A DNA stretch of 64,000 nt, from contig CAOJNP010000001.1 in NCBI GenBank assembly GCA_948439995.1, positions 394 through 64,393 on the forward strand, read 5' to 3'. Of this stretch, positions 4,482-58,588 are shown in pieces. A model generated the notes under the pieces. That model was not told the DNA's origin, ran no database searches, and worked only from the letters and a program-made list of their open reading frames with translations. Each line of letters opens with the position of its first letter. Position 1 is the stretch's first letter. The position numbers were made by a program, and so were the translations under genes. Source of the DNA: an uncultured Erysipelotrichaceae bacterium. GTDB taxonomy: Bacteria; Bacillota_I; Bacilli_A; RF39; UBA660.

Positions 4482-4570
4482 CGTATTTAAATCTCCTTTT
4501 TCTATTGTATAGCCATTTTATAGAATAGTAAATTTAAAATAAAAAAGACTATCTTTCTGATAGCCAATTT

Positions 4571-6310
4571 TTATGCATTTTTCTTTTTTATGATATAGTA
4601 AGAAATTCCTATGAAAGAACCAATGGCTAAAAAACTATAAGCAGTTACATTGATATTTGATGTTTGAGCATTATTGGTTTTATTTTTTGGATTATTTGTT
4701 ATTTGGTAATCATCGTTTCCTACAATAACATAAGTAGAGAAATGATCCAATTCAATTTCTAATTGTCCATCATAGTCTGCTTTATCTAGTTTTAAATTTT
4801 CTTTTATTACTTCCATTTTTTCCGTTTCAGGATTGTAATATAGTAAAGTGAATTTTGTATTTTCTAAATAGGCAGTTACTGCATCATTTAATTTTTCATA
4901 AAATGCATTTTCACATGACTGCCATGCTTCATATTCTTTTCCCGTTCCGTTCCATGAAACGTTATATTCTCCGCATGTATATTCTTCTTCATACATTTTA
5001 TCAAAAAATGTTCCATAAATATAATTATAAATGTTGATATTCATTTTATAAGGAGCTGGTAATGATCCATGATATGCAAAATCAATATAAATCGCATTCT
5101 GTAATTCTACTAATTCATCAATTTTATCTTTGTTTATTGATGTTTCCATTGAGATATTATGATCATAAGTAAAGCCTTTATTTACTGTACTAATAATTTC
5201 TTTTCCGTTTAAAAGATAATCAGAAGAAAGCCCGTTTTGATCTTTATAAAAATAAACGGTAAGATCTTTTCCTTTTAAATTGTTAATCATTTCAGATAAA
5301 TCATCTTTATCACTTAATTGATAGGAAAAATTATATTCTATTTCTTTCTCATTATGATAATGTTTGCTTTTTTCTGGAATAATATTTTTATATTTTTCGG
5401 TATCTTTTAGAATTTCTGCTAATCCTTCAGCATTTGGATGAACAAGTTCTTTTATACCAATTCCATATCCATTCTTATTAAAATCAACGGCTTGAATAGT
5501 CCAATCAATGGTAATATTTTCTTTTCCTTCTGCACTTAACGTATAAGAACCTTTTCCTAAATCTTTGGCATGTGTAATTACTTCTACTCCAGTTGGTTCA
5601 CTCTCAAAATGATATGCTTTCCACCAAGTGTTAGGTTCTGATAAATACATATTACTTTGTAATTCTTTTATTTTTTTCTCTTTTTCTTCTGGACTGTAAT
5701 AATTAGATGAGCTAATATAATCGATTGATTCTTGAAATCCTTGATTATAGAATTCCCACCAAGTTGGTTTGGTTTTAAATTTTTCTTTCAATTTTGGGAA
5801 TCCATTTTCACACCAGTCTTTATCATCTGACTCTAGATTTTCACAATATTCTTTTGGATATCCAGCTTTATAAAATTCTTCTAATGATAAACCTTCGAAC
5901 CATTTTACAAATTTTTCATAATGTTCTTTTTCTTTTTTGTATTCATATGGTTTTAATTCTACTGATAAGATTTTTTCATCGATGTTGGTAACTCTCATAT
6001 TTTTGGCATTAAATACTAAATTTTTTGTATAACTATCATCACTAAAATTTAAATGATCATAATTAAGACTAGTATCTCCACATCCGCCTATCAATTCTTC
6101 AATAATATATTTTTGTGAATAATTCTGCCAATTTACAATGCCAGTAGCACCATTTGGTCCCATGCTACAACCTCCATTAAAATAGTAACTAGGAGTTAGT
6201 GGCTCTTTTTGAAATAAATTTTCCCAATAATCATTTTGGGCATTAACTGTTGTACTTCCTAATAAAAGTACCGTTGCAACTGTCATGAAGTAATAACAAA
6301 TTTTTTTCAT
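4571..6310 (-). CDS. Secreted surface protein with C-terminal sorting-signal-like tail (putative sortase substrate)
   Basis: Signal peptide MKKICYYFMTVATVLLLGSTTVNAQ; C-terminus NPKNKTNNAQTS...hydrophobic segment...KKKNA. Start at ATG 6310 after GAGGGA. Confidence 0.5.
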   Translation of the reverse strand: MKKICYYFMTVATVLLLGSTTVNAQNDYWENLFQKEPLTPSYYFNGGCSMGPNGATGIVNWQNYSQKYIIEELIGGCGDTSLNYDHLNFSDDSYTKNLVFNAKNMRVTNIDEKILSVELKPYEYKKEKEHYEKFVKWFEGLSLEEFYKAGYPKEYCENLESDDKDWCENGFPKLKEKFKTKPTWWEFYNQGFQESIDYISSSNYYSPEEKEKKIKELQSNMYLSEPNTWWKAYHFESEPTGVEVITHAKDLGKGSYTLSAEGKENITIDWTIQAVDFNKNGYGIGIKELVHPNAEGLAEILKDTEKYKNIIPEKSKHYHNEKEIEYNFSYQLSDKDDLSEMINNLKGKDLTVYFYKDQNGLSSDYLLNGKEIISTVNKGFTYDHNISMETSINKDKIDELVELQNAIYIDFAYHGSLPAPYKMNINIYNYIYGTFFDKMYEEEYTCGEYNVSWNGTGKEYEAWQSCENAFYEKLNDAVTAYLENTKFTLLYYNPETEKMEVIKENLKLDKADYDGQLEIELDHFSTYVIVGNDDYQITNNPKNKTNNAQTSNINVTAYSFLAIGSFIGISYYIIKKKNA

Positions 6311-6398
6311 ATATTCCCTCTCTTTTAATTGAGTATAAATCAATATGAAAAAAAATTTCAGTTTTTAGTGTTAAGAATGGATATAATTTTATTATTTT

Positions 6399-7613
6399 TT
6401 AATAAAGAATATAAGTAATTTTTGCAAAACCATTTCCTGTGTTTCCTGTCATATTACCAGTTCCATCATGATTTGGCATAGAAAGATTCCCCGATATCAT
6501 TTTGGTATCATGAAATACATATCCAGAGTAATGATTTGGTTGTCCTGTATGAACTATTTTAGAAGAGGTTGAATTTTCTGCTATGGCATTACATCCTGGA
6601 TACCCTGAGATAAAGGAAGAACCTCCTCCACCTCCTGACCATGAACTGCCAGGATGAACTCCATGACCACCACCATAGTAACCTCCTCCACCTCCAGATG
6701 AGGTATAGGTATTATCTTTTATATTTTTTCCATATCCTCCAGCACCAAATGTTCCAGTCATAGAAGCTTGTTTTGGATCATACGTTGATCTCGCAGTTCC
6801 TGGACCGCCTCCAGCAGTTTGACTAGCTCCATAACCACTATAATTGGTATTGTTATAAAGGTTATCATAGGTAACTGCTATTTTACTATTAATTCCAGTT
6901 AGTCCTCCACCATCACCTCTAGTTACTACTGAAGTATTTGTTTTGAAAGAACCGCCGCCTCCTCCTGCTGCAACCATAATTCTGGATTTTAAAGATTCAA
7001 AATTATTCCAATTACCATTAACTAAACGAACATCAGTTGCACCACCACCAAATGCTTCGCCAGGTCCACTGCCATTAAATTGAATCCAATTCGAAGTTCC
7101 AACATAAAAGTATAAATGTGTATCTTTTATTAAATTAATATAACCTCTAACATAAGCTCCTCTTCCAAATGAATTTTGTAAAATTTTTCCATCTGATCTT
7201 ACATGACCAGATGCACCCCATAGTTCTAACAGATAAAGTCCATCATAAGGTACAATAAATTCTTGCTCGCTTGCTACATGATTAAAGCTATATACAATCT
7301 TTCCATCTACTAAACTTGAATTTTTTCGAAATAAAACATTACATTTTGTTCTCGTTTTGGTTAAGTTTTGAATTATAGGTGCCCAATCTTCATAATTCCA
7401 AGTTCCAGTCGCATCATTATTACAAGTTATATCTATAATATAATCTTTTTCTTCTGGAATTGTTTCACTGATTTTTCTATTACCATTTTCATCTTCCGTT
7501 TGAAATGTCAGCATTAAATCATAGTTTTGATTCGGAATTTGACCTTTAATTATGTCAAATTCTAGTTTTTCTTCAAAAAAGGCAAAGCTTCGATATACAA
7601 TGATCATTGCCAA
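6399..7613 (-). CDS. Glycine-rich domain protein
   Basis: Multiple poly-Gly tracts (GGGGGS, GGGGGYYGGGHG) and LELWGASG motif reminiscent of glycine-rich (ALK-like GR) domains; no clear signal peptide. Confidence 0.4.
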   Translation of the reverse strand: MAMIIVYRSFAFFEEKLEFDIIKGQIPNQNYDLMLTFQTEDENGNRKISETIPEEKDYIIDITCNNDATGTWNYEDWAPIIQNLTKTRTKCNVLFRKNSSLVDGKIVYSFNHVASEQEFIVPYDGLYLLELWGASGHVRSDGKILQNSFGRGAYVRGYINLIKDTHLYFYVGTSNWIQFNGSGPGEAFGGGATDVRLVNGNWNNFESLKSRIMVAAGGGGGSFKTNTSVVTRGDGGGLTGINSKIAVTYDNLYNNTNYSGYGASQTAGGGPGTARSTYDPKQASMTGTFGAGGYGKNIKDNTYTSSGGGGGYYGGGHGVHPGSSWSGGGGGSSFISGYPGCNAIAENSTSSKIVHTGQPNHYSGYVFHDTKMISGNLSMPNHDGTGNMTGNTGNGFAKITYILY

Positions 7614-42775: not shown

Positions 42776-43865
42776 TTATTCCACCTTTGTTTTTAAGACT
42801 GATTTCATGATATCTAAAATATCTCCATCTAATATTTTATCCACATTACTCGATTCATACTCACTTCTTAAATCTTTTATTAATTTATAAGGTTCTAAAA
42901 CATAGTTTCTAATTTGACTTCCCCATTCATTACTTAGATTTTCTCCTTTTATTTGATTTAATTCTCTTTCTTTTTTTTCTTGTTCAATTTGATAAAGCTT
43001 ACTTTTTAGCATTTTCATCGCTTGATCTTTATTTTTTAATTGACTTCTCTCATTTTGACACGTCACTACGGTTTTAGTAGGTAAATGAGTAATTCGAACT
43101 GCAGAATTAGATGTATTAACAGATTGACCTCCTGCTCCACTACTATGATATACATCTATTTTTAAATCACTTTCTTTAATTTCAATATCAATATCATGGT
43201 TAAATTCTGGTGTAACGCTTACAGAAGCAAAACTAGTATGTCTTCTCGAGTTAGAATCAAAAGGTGAAATTCTTACTAATCGATGAACTCCTTTTTCTAC
43301 TTTAAAATAACCATAAGCAAAATCTCCTTTAACTAAAAGAATTGCACTTTTAATTCCTGCTTCTTCACCTTTTTGTTCATCAATCACTTCATAACTATAG
43401 TTATTTTTTTCACAAAATCTTTCATACATTCGTAATAACATACTAGCCCAATCGCATGATTCTGTTCCGCCAGCTCCAGGATGAATTTCTAAATAACAAT
43501 TTAATTGATCAAAATTTCCATTTAATAAAGTATTCATTTCTAATTGTTCAATTATACTTTTTTGTTCATTTATTTCCTTTTCCATGAACCTTAATTCATT
43601 TTCTTCACAAATATTTATCAATTCTAAATTGTCAGTTAATGATTTTTTTGTTTTCTCAAGTTGCTCAACAATTTTTTTTAAACTTACTAACTCTTTGTTT
43701 AATTCATTCGCGATTTCTATATTACTCCAAAAATTTTCTTGTTTCATTTCATTTTCTAAGATGGTTATTTTTTCTTTTTTTTGTTCTAAGTCAAAGTGAC
43801 CTCCCAATTGTATTTATTTTTTCTAATAATGATTCGAAAAGACTTTTCAATTCTGTTTTATTCAT
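42776..43865 (-). CDS. prfB: Peptide chain release factor 2, programmed +1 frameshift
   Basis: ATG at 43865 after AAGGAGG. Frame 0 reads MNKTELKSLFESLLEKINTIGRSL then UGA at 43793-43791 within GGGAGG-TCA-CTT-TGA-C. The +1 frame continues DLEQKK... into the RF2 body (SPF, GGQ-type motifs). Confidence 0.85.
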
Positions 43866-43989
43866 AAGTATTCCTCCTTATTTATTATAACAAAATTTTA
43901 AAAACATATAAAATAACTTTAACTATATTTTTAATTTAACTTTTTTAATAATCATATTTTTAACAAAAGAATGAAAGCTTTTAAAATGA

Positions 43990-44021
43990 AAAAAAGTATT
44001 GAAATTTTTTCAATACTCTTT
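43990..44021 (-). terminator. Rho-independent terminator downstream of the giant surface protein gene
   Basis: AGTATTGAA/TTCAATACT 9-bp stem, 5-nt loop, followed on minus strand by TTTTTTT. Confidence 0.5.
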
Positions 44022-44055: not shown

Positions 44056-47000
44056 TTATTTTTTGTTAATAATTATTGCAATGATAGCTCCTAAAGCTAT
44101 AACAATTCCTGTGATAACATACCAGATTAAAGTGTTTGACTCTTTTGGTATTTCTTCTTGAACTTTTTCATCTTGTTTTTCTATTTCATTTTTATAATCT
44201 ATTAGTAATTTTCCAAAAGATTTCAATTCCAATTCAATTTGATTTGGACTTAAAGCTTTATAATCTAAATTTTCATAAGCATTTCCACGATTAATCAGAT
44301 ATATTCCTTCTAAATCTTTCTTATTATTCAGATTAATAATTAATTTAATCTTTTCTGATGAAATATTAATTTCTTTTTCTTTGGAATCTTCTAAATATAA
44401 TTCGAAATACTCTGAATCTTCTCCAAATTTTTGTTTTAAAGTTTTTGTAAGCTCAAAATCTTCTTTTTTTAGTACAAAATTAGTTAAGTTTTCACTTGTT
44501 AAAATACTTGCTTTAATATTTGAAATAGTAAAGTCAACATATTTTGTTTGATTTTCCTGCTTATTGTAATTTGGTAATGTATAATCTTTTATTACAATTT
44601 GATTATCTACTTTGTTTTCAGGAATAATAATTGGTTTTTCTACTTTCTTTTGAATCCAATTTACGATTGCTTTTGCTGTTCCTTTGTTTCCAGCTTGATC
44701 CATAAATTCAAATGTAAATTCTCCATTTTCTTTAAAAGTATATTTATTTGATCCATTATTATTTAAAATGGTAACATCTGTTTCATCAAATGTAATCATT
44801 GCCATAACATTTTGATCTGTTACTTTTTTGTTATCATAAATAATTGTTGCCGTTGGTGCAATTTTATCAATCCAATCGACGATAGCTTTTATACTTCCTT
44901 TATTTCCAACTTGATCTATATATTCAAATGTAAATTCTCCATTTTCTTTAAAGATCACTGTTTTCAAACCATTATTATTTAATAATTTTACTCCATCTTG
45001 TAATTCTATGGTTGCTATTACATCTTGATTCGTTAATTCTGTTTTATCATAAGTAATAGTCGCAATTGGTTTTTCTTTTTGAATCCAATTTACCATAGCT
45101 TTAGCTGTTCCTTTGTTTCCAGCTTGATCCATATACTCAAATATAAATTCTCCATTTTCTTGGAACGTATAAGTATTTAGTCCTTGATTATTCAAAATTT
45201 CTACATCTTTTTTATCAAAAGTAATCGTTGCAATTACGTCTTCTTTGGTTAATTCTGTTTTATCATAGGTAATGGTTGCATTTGGTATTACTTTATCAAT
45301 CCAATCTACAATAGCTTTTATACTTCCTTTATTTCCAGCTTGATCTATATATTCAAATATAAATTCTCCATTTTCTTGGAATGTATAAGTATTTAGTCCT
45401 TTGTTATTTAGGATTTTTACATTTTCTTTATCAAAACGTATGGTTGCTATTACATTTTGGTTGGTTAATTCTGTTTCATTAAATGAAATGGTTGCATTTG
45501 GTGCTTCTTTATCGATCCAATTTACCATTGCTGTCGCTGTTCCTTTGTTTCCTAATGTATCTTGATATTCAAATGTAAATTCTCCATTTTCTTGGAATGT
45601 ATAAGTATTTAGTCCTTTGTTATTTAAGATTTTTACATTTTCTTTATCAAAACGTATAGTTGCTATTACATCTTGGTTGGTTAATTCTGTTTTATTATAA
45701 GTAATAATAGGAGTTGGAAGTTCTTTATTTATCCAAGTAACTTTTGCTGTAGTTTTGTTTTTATTTCCAGCTTGATCCACATATTCAAATGTGAATTTGC
45801 CATTTTCTTGGAACGTATAAGTATTTAGTCCTTGATTATTTAAGATTTTTACATTTTCTTTATCAAATTGAATACTAACAGTTACATTTTGATTCGTTGG
45901 TTCTTCTATATTATAAGATAAGGTTCCTTCTGGTAATTTTTTATCAATCCAACTTACGATAGCTGTTGCTGTTCCAATATTTCCTAAAACATCTTGGTAT
46001 TCAAATGTAAATTTACCATTTTCTTGGAATGTATAAGAATTAGATCCATTATTATTTAGGATTTTAATTTCTTCCTCAGCATGAATTTCGGCAATTACAT
46101 TTTGATTCGTTAAATTGTTAATACTATAAGTAATAGTTGCAATAGGTGCTTCTTTGTCAATCCAACTTACTGTAGCAGTTGCATATCCTATATTTCCTGC
46201 TAAATCTTTCATTTCAAAAGTAAATTTACCATTTTCTTGGAATGTGTATGTTTTTTTACCTTCATTATTTAATACAATGATTTCTTCACTTGGAATTAAT
46301 TCTACTGTTACATCTTGATTGGTTAAATTTGTTGTACTGAATTTAAATTGCCCTGTAGGTAATACTTTATCAATCCAACTTACCATAGCTTTGGCTGTTC
46401 CTGTATTTCCCGCTAAATCACGATATTCAAATGTAAATTCTCCATTTTCTTGGAATGTATAAATATTTGATCCATTATTATTGGTAATGGTTACATTTTC
46501 TTTATCAAAAGTAATCGTAGCCGTAACGTCTTGGTTTGTTAATTCTGTTTTATCAAATGTAATGGTTGCATTTGGTACTGTTTTATCAATCCAATTTACA
46601 ACTGCTTTGGCTGTTCCAATATTTCCTGCTAAATCTTTAAATTCAAATATAAATTCTCCATTTTCTTGGAATGTATATGTTTTTTTACCTTCATTATTTA
46701 ATACAACGATTTCTTCACTTGGAATTAATTCTACTGTTACATCTTGATTGGTTAAATTTGTTGTATTGTATTTTAATTCTGCCGTAGGGGCTTCTTTATC
46801 AATCCAGTTAACAATGGCAATGGCATATCCTTCGTTTCCGTTCTCATCGATATAGTTGAATATAAATTGCCCATTTTCTTGGAATGTGTATGTGTTATGC
46901 CCATCATTATTTTGAATTGTTACATTTTCTCTATCAAATTCAATTGTTACTGTTACATTTTGATTCGTTATTGTATTGATATCATAGGTAAACGTAGCAT

Positions 47001-50000
47001 TAGCAATATCTTTATTAATCCAATCTACTTTTGCTAAAGTTGTATTTTTATTTCCCGCTAAATCTTGGTATTCAAATATAAATTCATCATTTTCAGTAAA
47101 AGTATAGGTATTTGATCCATTATTATTCAATATAATGATTTCTTCATCGCATTCTAATGTTGCAATGACAGGATCTCTAGTCGTGGAAAGATTACTGTAT
47201 TTTATTTTTGCTACAGGTACTGTTTTATCAATCCAATCTACTTTTGCTGTTGCTGTATTTTTATTTCCCAAATTGTCCTTGAATTCAAATGTAAATTCTC
47301 CATTTTCTTGGAATGTATAAGTATTTAATCCGTTATTATTAGTGATAAATACTTTTTCTTTATCAAATTCGATAGTAACTACAACATCTTGATTGGTTAA
47401 TTCTGTTATGTTGTATTTTAAAATTCCATTTGGTGCTACTTTATCAATCCAACTTACAACTGCTTTGGCTGTTCCTGTATTTCCCGCTAAATCACGATAT
47501 TCAAATGTAAATTCTCCATTTTCTTGGAATGTATAAATATTTGATCCATTATTATTCAATATAATGATTTCTTCATTTGCTATTAATTCTACTGTAACAT
47601 TTTTATTTGTCGTTTGTTTTGTACTATACATTAATTCTATTGTTGGAGCTTCTTTATCAATCCAACTTACAATTGCTTTTGCACTTCCTGTATTTCCTGC
47701 TGCATCACGATATTCAAACGTGAATTCACCATTTTCTTGAAACGTATAAGTATTTGAAATATTATTCGTAATAATAATATTTTTATCTGAAATAAGCGTT
47801 GCAATTACATTTTGATTCGTTTTTTCCGTAATGTTATATTCAATTCTAACATTTGGTGCTACTTTATCAATCCAATTTACAACTGCTTTTGCACTTCCTG
47901 TATTTCCTGCTGCATCACGATATTCAAATGTAAATTCGCCATTTTCTTGGAATGTATAAGTATTTAATCCGTTATTATTTAATACTTTAACATTGGATTT
48001 ATCAAATGAAATGGTTGCTGTTACGTCTTGATTGGTTAACTCTGTTTTATTGTAAGTAATGGTAGCATTTGGTGCCACTTTATCGATCCAATCAACATGA
48101 GCAGTAGTACTTCCTACATTTCCTGCTTCATCTGTAAAATCAAATGTAAATTCTCCATTTTCTTGAAATGTATAAGTATTTAATCCATTATTATTTAGAA
48201 TCCTTACATTTTCTTCATCAAATTCAACTGTAACTACGACATCTTGATTGGTTGGTTCCATTGTACTGTATTCTACGGTAGCATTTGGTGCTACTTTATC
48301 AATCCAACTTACGATAGCTGTTGCTGTTCCAATATTTCCTGCTGCATCCATAAATTCAAATGTAAATTCGCCATTTTCTGCAAAAGTATAAGTTAATGGA
48401 TCTTTATTTGGATCTGATAAATCAAGTGTTCCATTATTTAAGACTGTAACTGCTTCGTTTGGTATTAGTCTAGCAATAACATCTCGATTTATTTTATTGG
48501 TTGTACTATATTCAATGGTAGCTGTTGGTGCTTCTTTATCAATCCAATTTACAACTGCGGTTGAGCTTCCTGTATGTCCATAATCATCTACAAATTCAAA
48601 TGTGAATTCGCCATTTTCTTTGAAAATATAAGTATCACTACCACCATTATTTGTAATCGTTATATTGGTACTAGGATTAATTAATCTTGCAATAACATCT
48701 TGATTCGTAATTTCAGTTTTATCATATCCAACACCTGCTGTAGGATGTGGATTAATTGTTAAATCTTGAAAAATATTAAATGCTCTTGCCATAAACCAAT
48801 TTCCATTACTTGCACGATCCGCTACAATTTTAATATATTGTACTTCTTTTGGATGTTCTATTTCAAAACTTTTTGTATTTTCAATTGCTTCTTCATTGGT
48901 ATTTGCTTGATTCGTATATCTTAAATTTTTTGCAGTATATAATACTTCCCAATTTTCACCATCCATACTTCCATAAACGGTTCCATCTAATATTTTTCCA
49001 TTTCCACCGCCACCTGGAACATATTCTACAGCTGAAACATATCTTGGTTTATCTAATTTAATAGTAATAAATCTTTCAGTGTCTGACCCATTCCATGCAC
49101 TATGCCAATTGGTATTATAATTTCCATCAATGGCATTGGTTGCATATCTTTTTTGCGCTGAAGCTTCGGATGAAAACGATTCAATACTTAAATGGGAAAT
49201 GGATACATATTTTCTTGTGTCTGGTTGATTATCTGGAGTAAACGTATAACTTAATACATCACTTGGTAAATTGGTTCCTGTTGCTCCTATTCTTACTTGT
49301 AAGCTAGCATTTCCACTATTATCTGGGGAAGATATCGCATAAGAAGTCCATGAATCGTTTTCACTTTTTCTCCATTCATAAGTCGTATTAATTCCAATGA
49401 CACGATTTTCTAAATCGTTTCCAAATAAGTGAGTAGGTGTTGCTGCTTTTGTGATATCAATATTATAAATATTTTCTTCACTATAATTGACTCCAACAAT
49501 GTGGATTTTTATATCATTTTCAGCTGTAATACTTTCTAGTTCTTCTTCAATTAATTGTAATTTATGTTCTTCTTCTGCTGTAAATGACACTTCTTTCCAA
49601 TTATTACCACCATCTAAACTATAATCCCATCTTACTCCATTATTATCGAATCTACTTGATAAAACAATTTTTCCTGCATTGTCACCATCAAATGAGAAAG
49701 TAGCAATCGTTTTATCTATTTTTCCTAATAAATAATTTGCCTCTAATCTTGTTAAGGATGGTTGATAAACATAATAATCGTCTGCTGTATTATTTGGAAC
49801 TTTTGATCCTTCTGTTAAAATTCTTGTTTGCAATAAAGTGAATTTGTAACTATTTTCAATTGATGTTAATTTTGGCTTAATTAAATTTGTTAAATGATAC
49901 ATTGGTAATGGAAAATATTTCATTTCTTCTGCAAGTTCTTTTGCTAATTCATAATAGTCATCTTCTGTTTTATTTTCATTCGCATTATAAGTGGTTATTA

Positions 50001-51897
50001 AACCATACCAAGCATTGATATTAAGTGGTTGAATTTCTAATGCTTCACGATAAATTCTTTCTCTTTTTTCTAAATCACTTTGATATACATCTGCTAAAAT
50101 TACTTTCTTTTGACTTTCTTCAAATATTTCAAAATTGTTTAATACTTCTTGAGCTAAAGCCATATAAACAACAGAATATCCTCTTTGATAAGTTTCATTT
50201 CCCCATCCAAGTAACATTCTTTCGCCTTTTTCAGAAAGTGTCCATCCACTTACATCGTTATCTAGATTCCAATATCCTCTACCTAAATCATCTTGTGTAT
50301 AATATATAATCGCAGCATGTCCTGGTTGACCAATTACTGCAGCTGGTATTCCATGAGTTGCACGAATGTTTGAACCAGATTTTGAGATACCACCACAAAC
50401 GGCTCCAGTTCCAAATTTATTTCGAAAATTCATCCACACTTTGTATACTTTTTTATCCATGGTTCCACGAGTGATTCCATAATCATATAATTTTTTTTCT
50501 TTTACTGAAAATAAATCATTAAAATAGTCATAATTTTCTTCATCATAATAAACTGGATTTCCATAATTAGGCCATACATATGCGATATACGAGTGTGGTG
50601 TTAATAATCCCCATGCACTTTTTGGATTTTGGTCTATCTTATTTTGTACATATTCATTCAACCATACAATAGATTCATCATCAATTAGATTATTCATTAC
50701 AAATCGCATTTCTTCAATGTTATAATTTTCAAACCATTTGGTAATATCTATGGTATCTGTTACTTTTAGTTTTCCATTTTTATGTAAGTCTTTATAAATT
50801 TCGTATCTTTTTACAGCATCAGATTGATTTTCTGCTGCACTTGGTTGCATCCATAAAGCAACTTGTGCTGAGTGAGTTAAAGATAAAGTTATGGCCATTC
50901 TTTTATATAAATCACCATATTTATTACCATATTTAGTTAATTCTTGAATTTCAAAATCAATTTTATGAGCTTTTAATAATCTTTTTAAAACCTCAAAAGA
51001 ATTATAATAACTTCCAGTGGGTTTTCCACCCATGGTATATAATCTTAAATTTTCTAAATCATTAAATAACCATTCAAAAGTTTCTTTATTTTCTTGTCCT
51101 TCTCCTATAAACTTCTTAATTGCATATGTACCTACATTTTTAATTAAATTTCTTTGCAATATTGTCAATTCTTGTTCTTTATTATTAAAATCAATTTCTC
51201 CAAACGACTTAATTTTTTCATCATATTTTTCTAAATCAATTTGATCGAAAGAAGCGCCATATTCTGCTTTAATTAATTTTGCATCAGCATATACAGAGTG
51301 GTCTTGTCCATTTCCTTTATTGTCATAAGCTTCTAATTTCAAAAAGTTTTTATCTTTAATATCTATTTTAACCATATCGGCATTTTCTTTAGGTAATTTT
51401 ACAAATTCTTCTTGAAGATCCCAAGTTTCACCATCCATCGAAGTATAAATTCTAAAAGTAACACCGTTTCCTGCTGTAGAAGTAGTATTTAATCCTAAAA
51501 GTCCTGTAAAATAATCGTAATCATAATCGCTAATATCATATACTAATACTGAACTTGCATGAGCCCACATTCCTTTATCATAACTATATACTGAGCCTTC
51601 TACTTTTACAGATATTTTAGTATTATTACTTGTTTTATCTTTTAATATACTTCCCCAACTAGTTGATGATTGATTTTCTATATAATCAATATCAGAAAGA
51701 TAAATAAAATCTGTATTATTTACTTCATTATTATTTAAATTTAAAATATTTGATACTTCATTAATTTCTTGTTTCATATTTTGATAATACCTTGGTAATG
51801 TAATTACCATAATTAATAAGCATATAATTCCGATCAAATATATTTTATAATTATTTCTTGCTATGTATTTTTTCACGCCAAAAATCCCTCTTTTCAA
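44056..51897 (-). CDS. Giant (2613 aa) cell-surface protein with NPCBM-like, transglutaminase-like core, F5/8 type C and ~20 Ig-like repeats
   Basis: N-terminal signal/anchor; NPCBM-like (IYLSDIDY...VYADAKL); C-H-D pattern GAVCGG...HGIPAAVIGQPGHAAIIYY...GYWNLDND like transglutaminase-like cysteine proteases; discoidin-like domain (NWHSAWNGSDTERF). It has about 20 tandem ~80-aa repeats (TYTFQENGEFTFE...VNWIDKxAP) and a C-terminal TM. Start may be GTG at 51876 after AAGAGGGA. Confidence 0.8.
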   Translation of the reverse strand: MKRGIFGVKKYIARNNYKIYLIGIICLLIMVITLPRYYQNMKQEINEVSNILNLNNNEVNNTDFIYLSDIDYIENQSSTSWGSILKDKTSNNTKISVKVEGSVYSYDKGMWAHASSVLVYDISDYDYDYFTGLLGLNTTSTAGNGVTFRIYTSMDGETWDLQEEFVKLPKENADMVKIDIKDKNFLKLEAYDNKGNGQDHSVYADAKLIKAEYGASFDQIDLEKYDEKIKSFGEIDFNNKEQELTILQRNLIKNVGTYAIKKFIGEGQENKETFEWLFNDLENLRLYTMGGKPTGSYYNSFEVLKRLLKAHKIDFEIQELTKYGNKYGDLYKRMAITLSLTHSAQVALWMQPSAAENQSDAVKRYEIYKDLHKNGKLKVTDTIDITKWFENYNIEEMRFVMNNLIDDESIVWLNEYVQNKIDQNPKSAWGLLTPHSYIAYVWPNYGNPVYYDEENYDYFNDLFSVKEKKLYDYGITRGTMDKKVYKVWMNFRNKFGTGAVCGGISKSGSNIRATHGIPAAVIGQPGHAAIIYYTQDDLGRGYWNLDNDVSGWTLSEKGERMLLGWGNETYQRGYSVVYMALAQEVLNNFEIFEESQKKVILADVYQSDLEKRERIYREALEIQPLNINAWYGLITTYNANENKTEDDYYELAKELAEEMKYFPLPMYHLTNLIKPKLTSIENSYKFTLLQTRILTEGSKVPNNTADDYYVYQPSLTRLEANYLLGKIDKTIATFSFDGDNAGKIVLSSRFDNNGVRWDYSLDGGNNWKEVSFTAEEEHKLQLIEEELESITAENDIKIHIVGVNYSEENIYNIDITKAATPTHLFGNDLENRVIGINTTYEWRKSENDSWTSYAISSPDNSGNASLQVRIGATGTNLPSDVLSYTFTPDNQPDTRKYVSISHLSIESFSSEASAQKRYATNAIDGNYNTNWHSAWNGSDTERFITIKLDKPRYVSAVEYVPGGGGNGKILDGTVYGSMDGENWEVLYTAKNLRYTNQANTNEEAIENTKSFEIEHPKEVQYIKIVADRASNGNWFMARAFNIFQDLTINPHPTAGVGYDKTEITNQDVIARLINPSTNITITNNGGSDTYIFKENGEFTFEFVDDYGHTGSSTAVVNWIDKEAPTATIEYSTTNKINRDVIARLIPNEAVTVLNNGTLDLSDPNKDPLTYTFAENGEFTFEFMDAAGNIGTATAIVSWIDKVAPNATVEYSTMEPTNQDVVVTVEFDEENVRILNNNGLNTYTFQENGEFTFDFTDEAGNVGSTTAHVDWIDKVAPNATITYNKTELTNQDVTATISFDKSNVKVLNNNGLNTYTFQENGEFTFEYRDAAGNTGSAKAVVNWIDKVAPNVRIEYNITEKTNQNVIATLISDKNIIITNNISNTYTFQENGEFTFEYRDAAGNTGSAKAIVSWIDKEAPTIELMYSTKQTTNKNVTVELIANEEIIILNNNGSNIYTFQENGEFTFEYRDLAGNTGTAKAVVSWIDKVAPNGILKYNITELTNQDVVVTIEFDKEKVFITNNNGLNTYTFQENGEFTFEFKDNLGNKNTATAKVDWIDKTVPVAKIKYSNLSTTRDPVIATLECDEEIIILNNNGSNTYTFTENDEFIFEYQDLAGNKNTTLAKVDWINKDIANATFTYDINTITNQNVTVTIEFDRENVTIQNNDGHNTYTFQENGQFIFNYIDENGNEGYAIAIVNWIDKEAPTAELKYNTTNLTNQDVTVELIPSEEIVVLNNEGKKTYTFQENGEFIFEFKDLAGNIGTAKAVVNWIDKTVPNATITFDKTELTNQDVTATITFDKENVTITNNNGSNIYTFQENGEFTFEYRDLAGNTGTAKAMVSWIDKVLPTGQFKFSTTNLTNQDVTVELIPSEEIIVLNNEGKKTYTFQENGKFTFEMKDLAGNIGYATATVSWIDKEAPIATITYSINNLTNQNVIAEIHAEEEIKILNNNGSNSYTFQENGKFTFEYQDVLGNIGTATAIVSWIDKKLPEGTLSYNIEEPTNQNVTVSIQFDKENVKILNNQGLNTYTFQENGKFTFEYVDQAGNKNKTTAKVTWINKELPTPIITYNKTELTNQDVIATIRFDKENVKILNNKGLNTYTFQENGEFTFEYQDTLGNKGTATAMVNWIDKEAPNATISFNETELTNQNVIATIRFDKENVKILNNKGLNTYTFQENGEFIFEYIDQAGNKGSIKAIVDWIDKVIPNATITYDKTELTKEDVIATITFDKKDVEILNNQGLNTYTFQENGEFIFEYMDQAGNKGTAKAMVNWIQKEKPIATITYDKTELTNQDVIATIELQDGVKLLNNNGLKTVIFKENGEFTFEYIDQVGNKGSIKAIVDWIDKIAPTATIIYDNKKVTDQNVMAMITFDETDVTILNNNGSNKYTFKENGEFTFEFMDQAGNKGTAKAIVNWIQKKVEKPIIIPENKVDNQIVIKDYTLPNYNKQENQTKYVDFTISNIKASILTSENLTNFVLKKEDFELTKTLKQKFGEDSEYFELYLEDSKEKEINISSEKIKLIINLNNKKDLEGIYLINRGNAYENLDYKALSPNQIELELKSFGKLLIDYKNEIEKQDEKVQEEIPKESNTLIWYVITGIVIALGAIIAIIINKK
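44650..48750 (-). repeat. Intragenic tandem array of ~240-bp near-identical repeats encoding Ig-like modules
   Basis: Long stretches recur nearly verbatim, e.g. aatccaacttacaactgctttggctgttcctgtatttcccgctaaatcacgatattcaaatgtaaattctccattttcttggaatgtataa at about 46370 and 47450. Confidence 0.8.
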
Positions 51898-52815
51898 ATT
51901 ATTTGATATTATAGCAAAAAAATTATATTTTTCAATACTAAATTATTAAAAAATATCTTTTTTTATTCATTTTTTTCTAATAGTAATTATATCATTCATT
52001 TTTCTTTTATGATCTTTTTAATTAAAATGTTTACATCATTCTACTTATTTTTATAATGATAGCTTGATTTCATTAAAAATTTGCTTTTACATGACTGTAT
52101 TCTTCCATTTTTTTAAAATCTTTTCATAATATAATATGTCTCATAAATATTTAATATTAATTTAAAAAATTCATGAAATTTCTAATTGTATATAATAATG
52201 TTCCAATTTTAGTAATTATCAATATTTACATATCTTTATTTTGATCATTCTGTTTCTTTAGTCTAAATACTATTGCTTTGTCTTTAATTGAAAATTTAAT
52301 ATATTAACTTAACATCTAATTTTTATTTTCAAGTTTTATTAACCTATTACATTTTTTATAGCAATTCTAAATATTTCTTTAACATTTTTATTTCAAGCTT
52401 AGTTATCAATTTAACAAAATCTGTATAATTCCTAGTTGTATGAGCTTTATCTAATGCTATTTTCTATTGTTTTTCCATCTTTATTTTTAACTTCTTCTGA
52501 TGATAATAATGATATCTATTTCATCTTGAGTATAAAAACGTATTATAATCTTTTTTTTAATTGTTCTATATTTTAAATTTACTTTGCAATAATTATCTAG
52601 CCAATAAGCCAAATAATTTTGAACTCATACTTTAAAATCCACTTTCTTTTTCCATTAACTTTTACTAAAACAAAAAGAAATGTTAACAATTTATCTATGT
52701 TAACACTCCTTTATTTTTCAGAGTTTTAGTTATTTTCATTTAATTTATGAAAACAACAGAAATTTCGCTACCACTTTTGATTTTATCATATCTTTCGGAC
52801 ATCCTTATTTTACGA

Positions 52816-56520: not shown

Positions 56521-57135
56521 ATGAAAAGAAATTTTATTGAAAAATGCTATCAATTTATTTCAAAGTATCAAACTTGTGATGAATTGCAAGCAAAAAAAAT
56601 AAAATATGGTTTAGAAGGTATTTATAACGTATTAACGAAAGTAATTGTTATGGCAATTATTACTATAATATTAGGAATTTGGAAAAGTTATATTTTGTTA
56701 ATCATATTTTATGCTTTAGCAAGAAGGTATGCTTATGGACTTCATTCAAAAAGTTCTATTACTTGTTGGATTTTAACTCTTACCATTTATATTTTTGGAA
56801 GTTATTTTATCCATTATGCTCATCTTCAAAACTATATAATATATTTTATATGGTGCTTTAGTTTTCTTTCTTTCTTATTATGGGCTCCTGCCGATACCCC
56901 AAAGAGACCTTTGATTCATAAAGAAAAAAGAAGAATACAAAAAATAAAATCTTGTATCATATGTTTGATATATTTAGGACTTATTTTTTTATTTCAAAAT
57001 TGCTTTATCAACAATGCTATTATTTATAGCTTATTTGTACAATCTTTATGTATTAATCCTCTACTTTATAAAATCACGAATACACCTTTTGATAATTATA
57101 AAACATATTGTAAAAATCATGGTTTAAATTTTTAA
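56521..57135 (+). CDS. agrB: Accessory gene regulator B (AgrD-processing membrane peptidase)
   Basis: ARRYAYGLHSKSSITCW aligns to S. aureus AgrB IRRHAHGAHAPSSFWCY (catalytic His and Cys 7 residues apart); WAPADTPKRP vs YAPAATKKKP; 4-6 TM. Confidence 0.8.
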   Translation: MKRNFIEKCYQFISKYQTCDELQAKKIKYGLEGIYNVLTKVIVMAIITIILGIWKSYILLIIFYALARRYAYGLHSKSSITCWILTLTIYIFGSYFIHYAHLQNYIIYFIWCFSFLSFLLWAPADTPKRPLIHKEKRRIQKIKSCIICLIYLGLIFLFQNCFINNAIIYSLFVQSLCINPLLYKITNTPFDNYKTYCKNHGLNF

Positions 57136-57292: not shown

Positions 57293-57328
57293 AAAAAAAA
57301 GAGATCAAGGCCATATGATCTTTTTTTA
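57293..57328. terminator. Bidirectional terminator between convergent agrD and agrC
   Basis: A-run, AGATCA/TGATCT stem with 7-nt loop (AGGCCAT), then T-run overlapping the agrC stop. Confidence 0.45.
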
Positions 57329-58588
57329 ATCTAATTTTTTATTAATAATAATTTCATTAATGAATAAATCATTTATGATAGAAGTCTTTACTTTCACTTT
57401 TTTCCTGCCAATGATAGAAAATAATCCTATTCCATGACCTGATTTTTTAGTTGTATATTTCATAGTACCTAATTTATCGATGTCTAATAATTCTGAAAAT
57501 GTATTAATAATTTTAATTCGATAAGAATTTTCTGTTTCTCTCATATCTATCATAATAATTTTATCTTTTGTTTTTAAAGTAGCTTGTAAAGCATTATCTA
57601 AAAGTACACCTAAAGCTTCACACAAAAGATTATAACGTCTAGGAGATAAATGATCAAATACATTAGTTTCAATTATATTGTCTACTCCTAATTTTAAATT
57701 TGGTTCATTACAATCATAAATTTTTTCATATACAATTCTACTAATACCAATTGGGAGTTTTTGCATTTTATGGGAACATTTATTATTTTCATTATAAGAT
57801 TTTATTAAATCTTCAATTAATTGAATTGATTTTTTATTTGAAACACTTTTTATGCCATTTAACTGATGAATTATGTTATGTTTTAAAATATGATAATCAT
57901 CTACTATAGTTATATAAAATTCATTACTTTTTATTAAATGGTCATTAGTTTCTTTTAATGAATAGTTATTATATTCACAATTAATGTATATAATTATCAA
58001 GATCAAAACTGAAATCAATAAAACATAAAGACTAATATTTGAATTAACGATATTTTTTTCTACAACACTAAAATATAATGCGTATCCTAAAGAACATAAA
58101 ATGGTAATTAAAAGTATTAAGCGAAAATAAGGAAATTTTACTCGTGATATTTTTTTATATAAAGATTTAAACCAACGATGTAATTTTTTATTTCTTAATA
58201 TAAAAATTAAAATAATATCTAAGAAAATAGTGTATATTGATCGAATCATAAGTAAAGATAAATATGGAATAAATTTGGAACAAATCATTGCAAGAATATC
58301 AATAATTAATCCAAAGCTCCATAACACAATGCCATAATAAGTTGTTTCTTTTCGATTTCTACGATAGATCAAAAAATATAGTATAAAGTAAAAGCAGAAT
58401 GATGTAATTGTATTTAAAGTATCTAAATGATAATAATTTTCAAATGTCATAATTATTGCAAAAAATGGTATACAAAGTGCATATAGTTTATAAATTTTTG
58501 TTTTATGATCTGTTATTAATTTAAAACCATAAGTTAACGTACTTAATATTGAACAACTAGCAAAATAATAAAAAATATGATCAATCAT
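57326..58588 (-). CDS. agrC: AgrC-like membrane histidine kinase (HPK10 family)
   Basis: 6-7 N-terminal TM helices, H-box HNIIHQLNG, GHKL ATPase with GHGIGL; overlaps agrA by 8 nt. Confidence 0.75.
   Translation of the reverse strand: MIDHIFYYFASCSILSTLTYGFKLITDHKTKIYKLYALCIPFFAIIMTFENYYHLDTLNTITSFCFYFILYFLIYRRNRKETTYYGIVLWSFGLIIDILAMICSKFIPYLSLLMIRSIYTIFLDIILIFILRNKKLHRWFKSLYKKISRVKFPYFRLILLITILCSLGYALYFSVVEKNIVNSNISLYVLLISVLILIIIYINCEYNNYSLKETNDHLIKSNEFYITIVDDYHILKHNIIHQLNGIKSVSNKKSIQLIEDLIKSYNENNKCSHKMQKLPIGISRIVYEKIYDCNEPNLKLGVDNIIETNVFDHLSPRRYNLLCEALGVLLDNALQATLKTKDKIIMIDMRETENSYRIKIINTFSELLDIDKLGTMKYTTKKSGHGIGLFSIIGRKKVKVKTSIINDLFINEIIINKKLD

Follow-up and report, generated by a model that had tools for sequence, protein, structure and literature searches.

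A giant stalked, predicted surface protein from an uncultured Erysipelotrichaceae bacterium with a candidate thiol-enzyme module between two carbohydrate-binding modules

The window analysed here, a stretch of 64,000 nt from contig CAOJNP010000001.1 of an uncultured Erysipelotrichaceae bacterium, encodes a giant protein that we consider, on balance, to be a stalk-displayed, lectin-targeted thiol hydrolase acting on glycoconjugates, and probably a peptidase or amidase of glycoproteins. The protein would be arranged as a head (residues ~60-1040), a stalk and an anchor, and is predicted to be membrane-anchored at the cell surface. Within the head, an NPCBM lectin is followed by a putative enzyme module of ~520 aa, a 'mid' region and an F5/8 type C lectin (Table 1), and the candidate enzyme core would hold a Cys501-His527-Asn547(/Asp548) triad together with an invariant Gln524. 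If the domain is active, it would represent a new thiol-enzyme family for gut bacteria on host glycoproteins (mucus, IgA, glycocalyx), where the known players are glycoside hydrolases and zinc mucinases. Residue numbers throughout follow the numbering of the 2613-codon ORF.

Table 1. Features of the giant gene and its product, in window coordinates.
Feature	Residues	Position	Strand	Remark
Promoter-like site		51908..51935	-	TTGAAA-16 nt-TGcTATAAT, TG-extended; consensus match only
RBS		51886..51890	-	GAGGG, 9 nt 5' of GTG 51876; read from sequence
Coding sequence, surface protein 2606 aa		44056..51876	-	GTG start; mechanical ORF reaches TTG 51897
Signal peptide or signal anchor		51793..51876	-	KKYIARNNYK then hydrophobic IYLIGIICLLIMVITL; translation read; predicted
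NPCBM/NEW2 carbohydrate-binding module	65-208	51274..51705	-	Pfam PF08305
Central module	210-735	49693..51270	-	Helical N-part, candidate thiol-enzyme core and a C-part of TPR-like helices; without family assignment
Transglutaminase/papain-like core	471-612	50062..50487	-	Candidate catalytic residues within
Candidate catalytic Cys	501	50395-50397	-	
Candidate Gln	524	50326-50328	-	
Candidate catalytic His	527	50317-50319	-	
Candidate Asn	547	50257-50259	-	
Candidate Asp	548	50254-50256	-	
'Mid' region	736-905	49183..49692	-	Asp-box-like motif SLDGGNNW; probably beta-rich
F5/8 type C (discoidin) carbohydrate-binding module	909-1038	48784..49173	-	Pfam PF00754
Stalk, 19 tandem repeats of ~72 aa	1046-2417	44647..48762	-	TRF and alignment
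Membrane-proximal segment, non-repeat	2418-2589	44131..44646	-	No domain match
C-terminal transmembrane anchor		44068..44130	-	LIWYVITGIVIALGAIIAIII, then NKK and stop; translation read; predicted
Predicted intrinsic terminator		43989..44017	-	10-bp perfect AT-rich hairpin AGTATTGAAA/TTTCAATACT, then T-run; ~40 nt past stop

The original prediction had described a 2613-aa product of ORF 44056..51897 as the largest of the window. The ORF is real, and it is the biggest among those listed for positions 30000-64000, but its product is likely 2606 aa long. The TTG at 51897 lies only ~4 nt past the transcription start expected from the extended -10 promoter; translation almost certainly starts at GTG 51876, 9 nt past GAGGG. 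Gene callers picked this codon, and the orthologue in the sister genome L001 starts there as well. The promoter-like site (11/12 matches plus the TG) was the top match of a 9.4-kb scan in which the total number of promoter-type matches was no greater than in shuffles. At the other end, the terminator hairpin folds at -13 kcal/mol (z = -4.0), a stability equalled in 0/200 shuffles; it escaped a consensus scan, which demands 3 G-C pairs. The best explanation is that the giant gene is monocistronic, with a predicted promoter and terminator of its own.

The central module was modelled by AlphaFold with a pLDDT of 91.3 and a pTM of 0.89. Searches of the module against Pfam, NCBIfam and PDB sequence models gave nothing beyond a TPR-like motif, and all 88 of its homologues are unnamed or carry the names of flanking domains only. 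TPR_14 and TPR_17 reached 12-13 bits, under their cut-offs, whilst one motif at residues ~606-655 aligns with designed consensus TPR proteins and the model shows paired helices at ~590-726. For the core, neither Transglut_core nor any peptidase profile was found at E up to 10 when the window segment and 21 family cores were searched against Pfam. Moreover, a core profile found no match among PDB sequences, and a word-indexed homologue search with it returned 14 fragments only and no annotated distant relatives. The central region has no match among the sequence models of Pfam, NCBIfam and PDB, and so none of the known families of glycoside hydrolases or peptidases claims it. The earlier statement that no characterised match could be recognised thus holds for the databases and the literature searched, where the sole relevant item was a survey of dockerin proteins in Ruminococcus flavefaciens.

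The link to transglutaminases comes from structure. As proposed from the sequence, the GAVCGG...QPGHAA...WNLDND segment lies within a confidently modelled core of a helix and three strands. Cys501 is the first residue of model helix H292-304 and His527 the first of strand E318-326 (model numbering); the Cys sits at the helix N-terminus, and the His and Asn/Asp lie on the antiparallel strands that follow. Such an arrangement is the canonical topology of the transglutaminase/papain-like superfamily. In the model the candidate catalytic helix packs on an antiparallel sheet and can be superposed on known transglutaminase-like members. The best structural matches of the core were proteins of this superfamily with the same core topology, namely factor XIIIa, TG2/TG3, PNGase, S. 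pyogenes TglA, the Bacteroidales TGase-like 'putative proteases' 3kd4 and 3isr, LapG and PeiW; whole-module searches gave helical-repeat matches only. Menin was also a structural match, and its structure combines a transglutaminase-like domain with TPR motifs, a combination that the TPR-like extension after the core resembles here. As modelled, the core has a transglutaminase-like fold, and a sequence-profile link to that superfamily is absent. It differs from the superfamily members in its short Cys-His spacing (26 residues), in Asn547 as the conserved third residue, in a family-specific helical N-part of ~260 aa with the motif EEMRFVMNNxIDDE, and in being embedded between two lectin modules.

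A Cys...His...Asp arrangement had been proposed for the active site. Among 220 family sequences, drawn from 50%-identity cluster representatives, Cys501, Gln524 and His527 are 99-100% conserved (Cys in 215/217, His in 214/215), which upholds the first two residues. However, the best conserved third residue is Asn547 (97%; 202/208) and not Asp548 (71%; 147/208, with Asn there in 45), and position 548 is Asn throughout one whole clade. Asn is the likelier candidate for the third catalytic residue, and a papain-style Cys-His-Asn triad is just as possible as Cys-His-Asp.

Both carbohydrate-binding modules that had been read from the sequence were recovered by Pfam. The NPCBM module scored 70.4 bits against a cut-off of 23.9 (E 1.9e-19; profile positions 3-136/137) and the F5/8 type C module, which is CBM32-type, 77.5 bits against 28.2 (E 1.2e-21; profile positions 5-124/127), and on these matches we infer that the two act as glycan-binding lectins. 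The 'mid' region gave weak Pfam matches alone (Reelin_subrepeat-B 2e-4, CHB_HEX_C 0.03, BNR 3.4) and no significant match among PDB sequences. In glycan-targeted peptidases from gut and pathogenic Firmicutes, namely the M60-like/enhancin mucinases and the Clostridium perfringens Zmp proteins, a surface-displayed peptidase module is flanked by CBM32/CBM51 lectins, and the present head, with its flanking F5/8 type C and NPCBM modules, follows the same design logic. However, those proteins are HEXXH zinc metallopeptidases, whereas the candidate here is a thiol enzyme whose fold is different, and among the HMMs of Pfam neither M60 nor any other peptidase matched the window protein.

Members of this uncharacterised family are widespread among Firmicutes MAGs from animal guts. 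Relatives number at least 458 encoding stretches in species-representative genomes and ~600 protein clusters at 50% identity; of the best 80 loci, nearly all belong to uncultured MAGs, of which many are of mouse-gut origin (MGBC) and one bears the label rabbit. NPCBM-core-mid-F5/8C is a fixed four-module head: the module has NPCBM ahead of it in 89% of 116 long representatives, and behind it 'mid' in 115 (99%) and F5/8C in 97%. Eight divergent relatives (up to 4068 aa) contain no other catalytic Pfam domain, whilst their stalk and anchor modules are swapped (Big_3, Flg_new, LRR_5, Dockerin_1). The sole candidate catalytic domain of the shared head is one without family assignment or characterised member. 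Some relatives (P0155, P0183) carry a type I dockerin at the C-terminal end, and in others, such as P0066 and P0048, the candidate catalytic module is a stand-alone secreted protein without a stalk. A cohesin-type gene adjoins in 27 of the 80 best loci, and in the representative neighbour scanned with Pfam (locus L078) a Cohesin domain is combined with an LPQTG anchor, which points to surface display by several routes; no cohesin gene lies near the window protein's own.

Extracellular transglutaminase-like putative proteases that bear dockerins and are tethered to the cell surface are found in the cellulosome of R. flavefaciens FD-1 (PMC2930009). The type I dockerins and adjoining cohesin-type genes of our family are reminiscent of these proteins. 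However, the latter are small (SIGN-TGase-Doc), have a recognisable transglutaminase-like model and lack NPCBM, F5/8C and a long stalk, whereas the window protein uses a transmembrane anchor; they are equally uncharacterised.

About 20 Ig-like repeats had been predicted for the stalk. A tandem array is indeed present, with 19 repeats, each of 70-80 aa (TRF period 216 bp, super-period 429 bp, 17.5 copies, ~70% DNA identity) and with the consensus WIDKxAPxATIxYxxTELTNQDVxATIxFDxExVxILNNxGxNTYTFQENGEFTFEYxDxAGNxGTAxAxV. An Ig-like character is weakly indicated, by sub-threshold matches only: Big_3_2 reaches 24.3 bits summed across the array (cut-off 23.3), yet no individual stretch passes, and single repeats match Big_9, Big_12, Big_13, Big_3_2 and HYR_4C below threshold (best E 0.006). 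Against PDB sequences the repeat gave no significant match. The segment that follows had been called a low-complexity stalk, which it is not: these 172 aa are non-repetitive, K/E/I/N/L-rich and conserved in some relatives, being common to 9 of the 80 best related loci, and searches of Pfam and PDB found no match to them. The C-terminus reads ...EEIPKESNT-LIWYVITGIVIALGAIIAIII-NKK, a transmembrane anchor without LPXTG as had been described.

Between the window and L001, the head segments are 93-99% identical, the stalk 77% on average and residues 2418-2613, anchor included, 61%. The neighbouring genes give 95.7% (secA), 97.5% (FtsH), 88% (RF2) and 76% (TilS), and in this comparison the central module is more conserved than secA. 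The family is a clear example of a tip that stays conserved while its stalk evolves fast and its means of anchoring is exchanged, which may be a transmembrane helix, a dockerin or a neighbouring gene of cohesin type. Giant repeat-stalk surface proteins such as Ebh, SiiE, LapA and the Bap-type adhesins likewise place many small beta-rich repeats in a row between tip and anchor, and a fast-evolving stalk behind a conserved tip is a further shared trait. In contrast to them, the present tip is enzyme-like with lectins and not a simple adhesive domain, the repeats fall outside the recognised Big/HYR Pfam families, and the anchor is a transmembrane helix and not LPXTG or T1SS retention.

We propose that the two lectin modules dock the head onto glycans, which by analogy with the same kinds of module in enzymes of other gut Firmicutes are probably host mucin-type, blood-group or galactose-containing, and that the thiol active site would then attack an amide (or ester) bond of the glycoconjugate. 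The 19 repeats would form a long spacer, of the order of 70 nm if each repeat is an Ig-like domain of ~3.5-4 nm, which may keep the head distant from the cell whilst the C-terminal transmembrane helix tethers the protein. As to the activity, we favour a peptidase or isopeptidase directed at glycoproteins, with a PNGase-like or glycan-amide hydrolase in second place.

That second activity also forms the best surviving alternative, in which lectins position the glycan and the enzyme hydrolyses glycan amides and not peptides, either by PNGase-like release of N-glycans or as a de-N-acetylase/esterase on GlcNAc, GalNAc or sialic-acid substituents. We regard this as unlikely, although worth keeping in view; sequence similarity to PNGase is absent, and other transglutaminase-fold proteins match the core with the same or higher scores than PNGase does. 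The occurrence of inactive transglutaminase folds among the structural matches (menin, Rad4/XPC, band 4.2), and a TPR-like extension that suggests protein binding, might instead speak for a non-catalytic head, in which the domain would be a binding scaffold as in menin, Rad4/XPC and protein 4.2, and the protein a purely lectin-type adhesin. Retention of the Cys, His, Gln and Asn in 97-100% of the 220 sequences is unexpected for a scaffold, and between the window and L001 conservation of the head exceeds that of housekeeping neighbours; we judge a non-catalytic head improbable.

A true transglutaminase, forming covalent cross-links to host glycoproteins or among surface and matrix proteins and so serving as a covalent adhesin, seems decidedly improbable. 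Cross-linking transglutaminases use Cys-His-Asp, whereas the Asp here is replaced by Asn in a whole clade and it is the neighbouring Asn547 that is conserved; moreover, the bacterial transglutaminase-like domains studied are mostly hydrolases. It is very unlikely that the module works in cis or on its own surface in the manner of LapG on LapA, trimming or releasing the stalked protein or cleaving neighbouring surface proteins, since the two lectin modules that consistently flank it and the secreted forms that lack a stalk both suggest that the substrate is external. Assembly errors are common in long tandem repeats, but that the ORF is an artefact or pseudogene with a mis-assembled array is scarcely credible, given that the identical 2606-aa product occurs on 4 independent metagenome contigs from at least 2 ENA assemblies (ERZ14864787, ERZ14864788; coverage ~20x and ~9x), that L001 has an intact orthologue of 2605 aa, likewise with 19 repeats, and that the repeats are only ~70% identical in DNA and hence assemblable; the same applies to membership of residues 210-735 in one of the known families of glycoside hydrolases or peptidases, since Pfam, NCBIfam and PDB were all negative.

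Returning to the lectin-guided hydrolase, a bolder and more speculative version, which we put forward tentatively and think on the whole unlikely, is that the head represents an unrecognised enzyme class. Its members would be extracellular Cys-His-Asn amidases with a transglutaminase fold, guided by their lectins and processing host glycoconjugates unlike any known gut-bacterial enzyme, in a family under stronger constraint than core housekeeping genes. Possible activities of such a class are a surface PNGase-type enzyme, a glycopeptide-specific thiol hydrolase and a glycan de-N-acylase. The case is directly testable, because the compact head can be expressed and the Cys-to-Ala control is obvious.

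Lastly, we considered the genomic setting. The 918-bp gap upstream of the gene, predicted to be noncoding, lacks ORFs of at least 80 aa, has no match to Rfam up to an E of 1 and showed no cohesin-like remnant in a tblastn search, and a hidden gene or RNA was rejected on these negatives. The adjacent secA is indeed the upstream neighbour; its synteny is kept only in L001 and L002, the two closest genomes, and that of prfB only in L001. A functional link with either gene was rejected on this limited synteny and on the predicted promoter and terminator of the giant gene itself; the adjacency to secA is incidental, without functional meaning. The neighbourhoods of related loci offer no clue to function: they include no cluster for glycan utilisation, and glycoside-hydrolase genes do not group with the family; cohesin-type proteins are the only recurrent neighbours, the remainder being recombinases, cell-wall or housekeeping genes.

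The giant gene is the largest of the ORFs listed for positions 30000-64000 of the window, as the original prediction had it, but the start should be moved from the TTG. The GTG at 51876 is preceded, at 9 nt, by a GAGGG ribosome-binding site and is also the start in the sister-genome orthologue (locus L001) and in public gene calls, whilst the promoter-like site would place transcription start ~4 nt before the TTG. Promoter position, GAGGG-GTG spacing, orthologue and public calls all fit the GTG and therefore the protein is 2606 aa; residue numbers given here count from the TTG of the 2613-codon ORF. With this promoter-like site before it and a hairpin and T-run after it, the gene looks monocistronic. 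An identical 2606-aa product was called on four contigs from at least two ENA metagenome assemblies and L001 carries an intact 2605-aa orthologue, likewise with 19 repeats; thus an assembly artefact or pseudogene is very unlikely.

Pfam recovered both the NPCBM and the F5/8 type C modules that had been predicted. For the central module between them, no family match was found among Pfam, NCBIfam or PDB sequence models, the only signal from these being one TPR-like motif around residues 606-655. A homologue search with this module returned 88 proteins, all 'hypothetical' or named just for their NPCBM/discoidin parts. AlphaFold, run on the alignment of these homologues, gave a confident model (pLDDT 91.3, pTM 0.89) with a predicted helical N-part of ~260 residues, a core whose helix has Cys501 as its very first residue and leads into three antiparallel strands, and TPR-like paired helices. 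In the model His527 opens the second strand of the core and Asn547/Asp548 lie just past the end of the third. Structural matches of the core included S. pyogenes TglA (5.1), the TGase-like putative protease 3kd4 (5.0), mouse PNGase (4.6) and the microbial TGase 4xz7 (4.6), with 3isr, TG2, TG3, menin, Rad4/XPC, LapG, PeiW, Cif and NAT ranking lower. The modelled topology and these matches support the transglutaminase-like core originally proposed. Across 220 family sequences, mostly 50%-identity cluster representatives, the cysteine and histidine of the proposed Cys...His...Asp are nearly invariant, but the Asp is less conserved than the Asn next to it, and the candidate triad is better written Cys-His-Asn(/Asp).

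Features of the giant gene and its product, with comparison proteins and neighbouring genes at related loci
Feature	Position	Strand	Identity to L001	Detail
Giant ORF	44056..51897	minus		2613 codons from TTG
Promoter-like site TTGAAA, 16 nt, TGcTATAAT	51935-51908	minus		11/12 matches, extended -10; best in region scanned
Terminator-like hairpin, then T-run	~40 nt past stop			perfect 10 bp; -13 kcal/mol, z = -4.0
Signal peptide or signal anchor	residues 8-35
NPCBM	residues 65-208		92.6%	Pfam, 70 bits, far over threshold
Central module	residues 210-735		97.6-99.3%
Candidate Cys	Cys501			kept in 215/217
Conserved Gln	Gln524			kept in 214/215
Candidate His	His527			kept in 214/215
Candidate Asn	Asn547			kept in 202/208
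Candidate Asp	Asp548			kept in 147/208; Asn in 45
'Mid' region	residues 736-905		96.5%
F5/8 type C	residues 909-1038		95.6%	Pfam, 77.5 bits, far over threshold
19 tandem repeats	residues 1046-2417		mean 77%, 56-99% per repeat	70-80 aa each
Non-repetitive segment	residues 2418-2589
C-terminal part / membrane-proximal segment			61%
Transmembrane helix, then NKK	C-terminus
SecA			95.7%
FtsH			97.5%
RF2			88%
Hpf			89%
TilS			76%
Fic/DOC-like ORF	L001 4970-5899			identified by eye
Flavodoxin-like ORF	L001 5986-6459			identified by eye
PNPOx-like ORF	L001 6491-6910			identified by eye
Cohesin-type representative	L078 8449-9159			Pfam Cohesin E 4e-15; LPQTG anchor
Cohesin-type representative	L014 8767-9492			no significant Pfam match; ends LPKAG + hydrophobic tail

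Of the ~20 Ig-like repeats predicted, a tandem array of 19 stands, whilst 'Ig-like' is plausible only, given sub-threshold matches to several bacterial Ig-like families and none to PDB sequences. The repeat DNA has a 216-bp period and a two-repeat super-period of 429 bp (~70% identity), and bona fide Big_3 domains fill the equivalent position in relatives. The supposed low-complexity stalk near the C-terminus is non-repetitive rather than low-complexity; the terminal membrane anchor was correctly described, the translation ending without an LPXTG.

Judged by identities between the window and L001, the central module is under constraint no weaker than that on essential housekeeping proteins, and stalk and anchor are drifting. 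Divergence over residues 1046-2613 climbs away from the head, with repeats 1-2 at 95-99%, repeats 3-8 at 80-89% and repeats 9-18 at 56-74%. Relaxed constraint may lie behind this gradient, as may diversifying selection or a shuffling of repeats.

Gut Firmicutes commonly carry giant surface proteins with lectin modules. The reading best supported here, and in our view somewhat probable, is that this one is a thiol enzyme which the stalk would display at the cell surface, with the lectin modules on either side docking it on glycoconjugates; we infer that it is catalytic and surface-exposed, and likewise its substrate, the specificity of its lectins and the geometry of its stalk. Acyl transfer at amide, ester or thioester bonds is the chemistry of the transglutaminase/papain fold, and candidate activities were ranked within that frame. 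First of five comes a glycoprotein-directed peptidase or isopeptidase, similar in its logic to the CBM32/CBM51-bearing zinc mucinases, whose lectin-flanked design is similar but whose catalytic fold differs. A predicted PNGase-like or glycan-amide hydrolase ranks second, a non-catalytic scaffold third and a cross-linking transglutaminase fourth; a cis-acting release protease is placed last. The core resembles the transglutaminase-like superfamily in modelled fold and candidate triad, without membership by sequence. The closest known kinds include giant repeat-stalk adhesins and the dockerin-borne TGase-like proteins of Ruminococcus flavefaciens, uncharacterised as well (PMC2930009). In agreement with the original prediction, the databases and literature searched contained neither a characterised member nor a family model for the central module; we therefore rate it an unannotated and widespread family, modelled with a transglutaminase-like fold, in a fixed lectin-enzyme-lectin head. 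The family is a good enzyme-discovery target for host-glycoprotein processing.

An exhaustive search of cluster representatives gave 596 clusters at E <= 1e-3 and 351 at E <= 1e-10, and the GTDB species representatives scanned contain no fewer than 458 stretches that code for a relative. The best 80 of these loci come almost entirely from MAGs whose label is Tenericutes, Bacilli, Clostridia or Clostridium, and the mouse-gut MGBC catalogue is the source of many. Members from named genera are P0075 (Enterococcus faecium; partial, 36% identity) and P0044 (a Turicibacter sp. MAG; 38% identity), and cultured representatives of either genus could supply experimentally tractable homologues. The head order NPCBM-central-mid-F5/8C is common to all of the best 80 loci where the ORF is complete on the contig, with 0 to 19 detectable repeats, the window's 19 being the highest. 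Among 116 representatives of at least 1000 aa, the central module has NPCBM before it in 103, 'mid' after it in 115 and F5/8C after it in 112. In eight divergent relatives, the longest of 4068 aa, Pfam showed no other catalytic domain; these proteins vary in stalk and anchor (Big_3, Flg_new, LRR_5, Ig_3, type I dockerin). Stand-alone secreted forms of the central module also exist (e.g. P0066, P0048). Some genomes carry tandem paralogues; at L008, L019, L023, L028, L031, L054 and L072 the two genes differ in mid-F5/8C unit and repeat numbers.

At 27/80 loci a ~240-aa protein related to the L078 or L014 representative directly adjoins the family gene. A type I dockerin forms the C-terminus of two relatives, P0155 and P0183. 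These adjacent genes and dockerins suggest that members of the family may be tethered by cohesin-dockerin pairing in some lineages. At L023 and L035 a match to the cohesin-type neighbour lies within the family protein (E 1e-11 and 4e-10). In the window no cohesin-type gene lies beside the giant gene, whose product bears its own transmembrane anchor instead.

The gene order hpf-secA-[giant gene]-prfB-yitT-tilS-ftsH is kept whole only in L001, with hpf and secA also upstream at L002. Between secA and the giant gene, L001 has 3 kb (4529-7543) with three unrelated small genes, and the window 918 bp of ~20% GC (51898-52815), alignable over just 104 bp and, in line with the predicted noncoding stretch, with no ORF of 80 aa or more and no Rfam match. 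By this comparison the gap is a variable site; the reported position beside secA is real, but with synteny so limited it is functionally meaningless. Downstream, prfB (42776-43864, minus) has a classic programmed +1 frameshift, reading ATG at 43864 and then ...GGGAGG TCA CTT TGA C... (shift site ~43788-43800), so that the mechanical ORF of 343 aa, which opens at a TTG, lacks the first ~25 codons; the site also shows that UGA is a stop (genetic code 11) in this 'Tenericutes'-labelled organism. Just past hpf lies an agr-type quorum-sensing pair, AgrB (56521-57135, plus; Pfam E 1e-31) and a GHKL histidine kinase (HATPase_c_5; 57326-58588, minus), of which AgrB is kept in L001 too.
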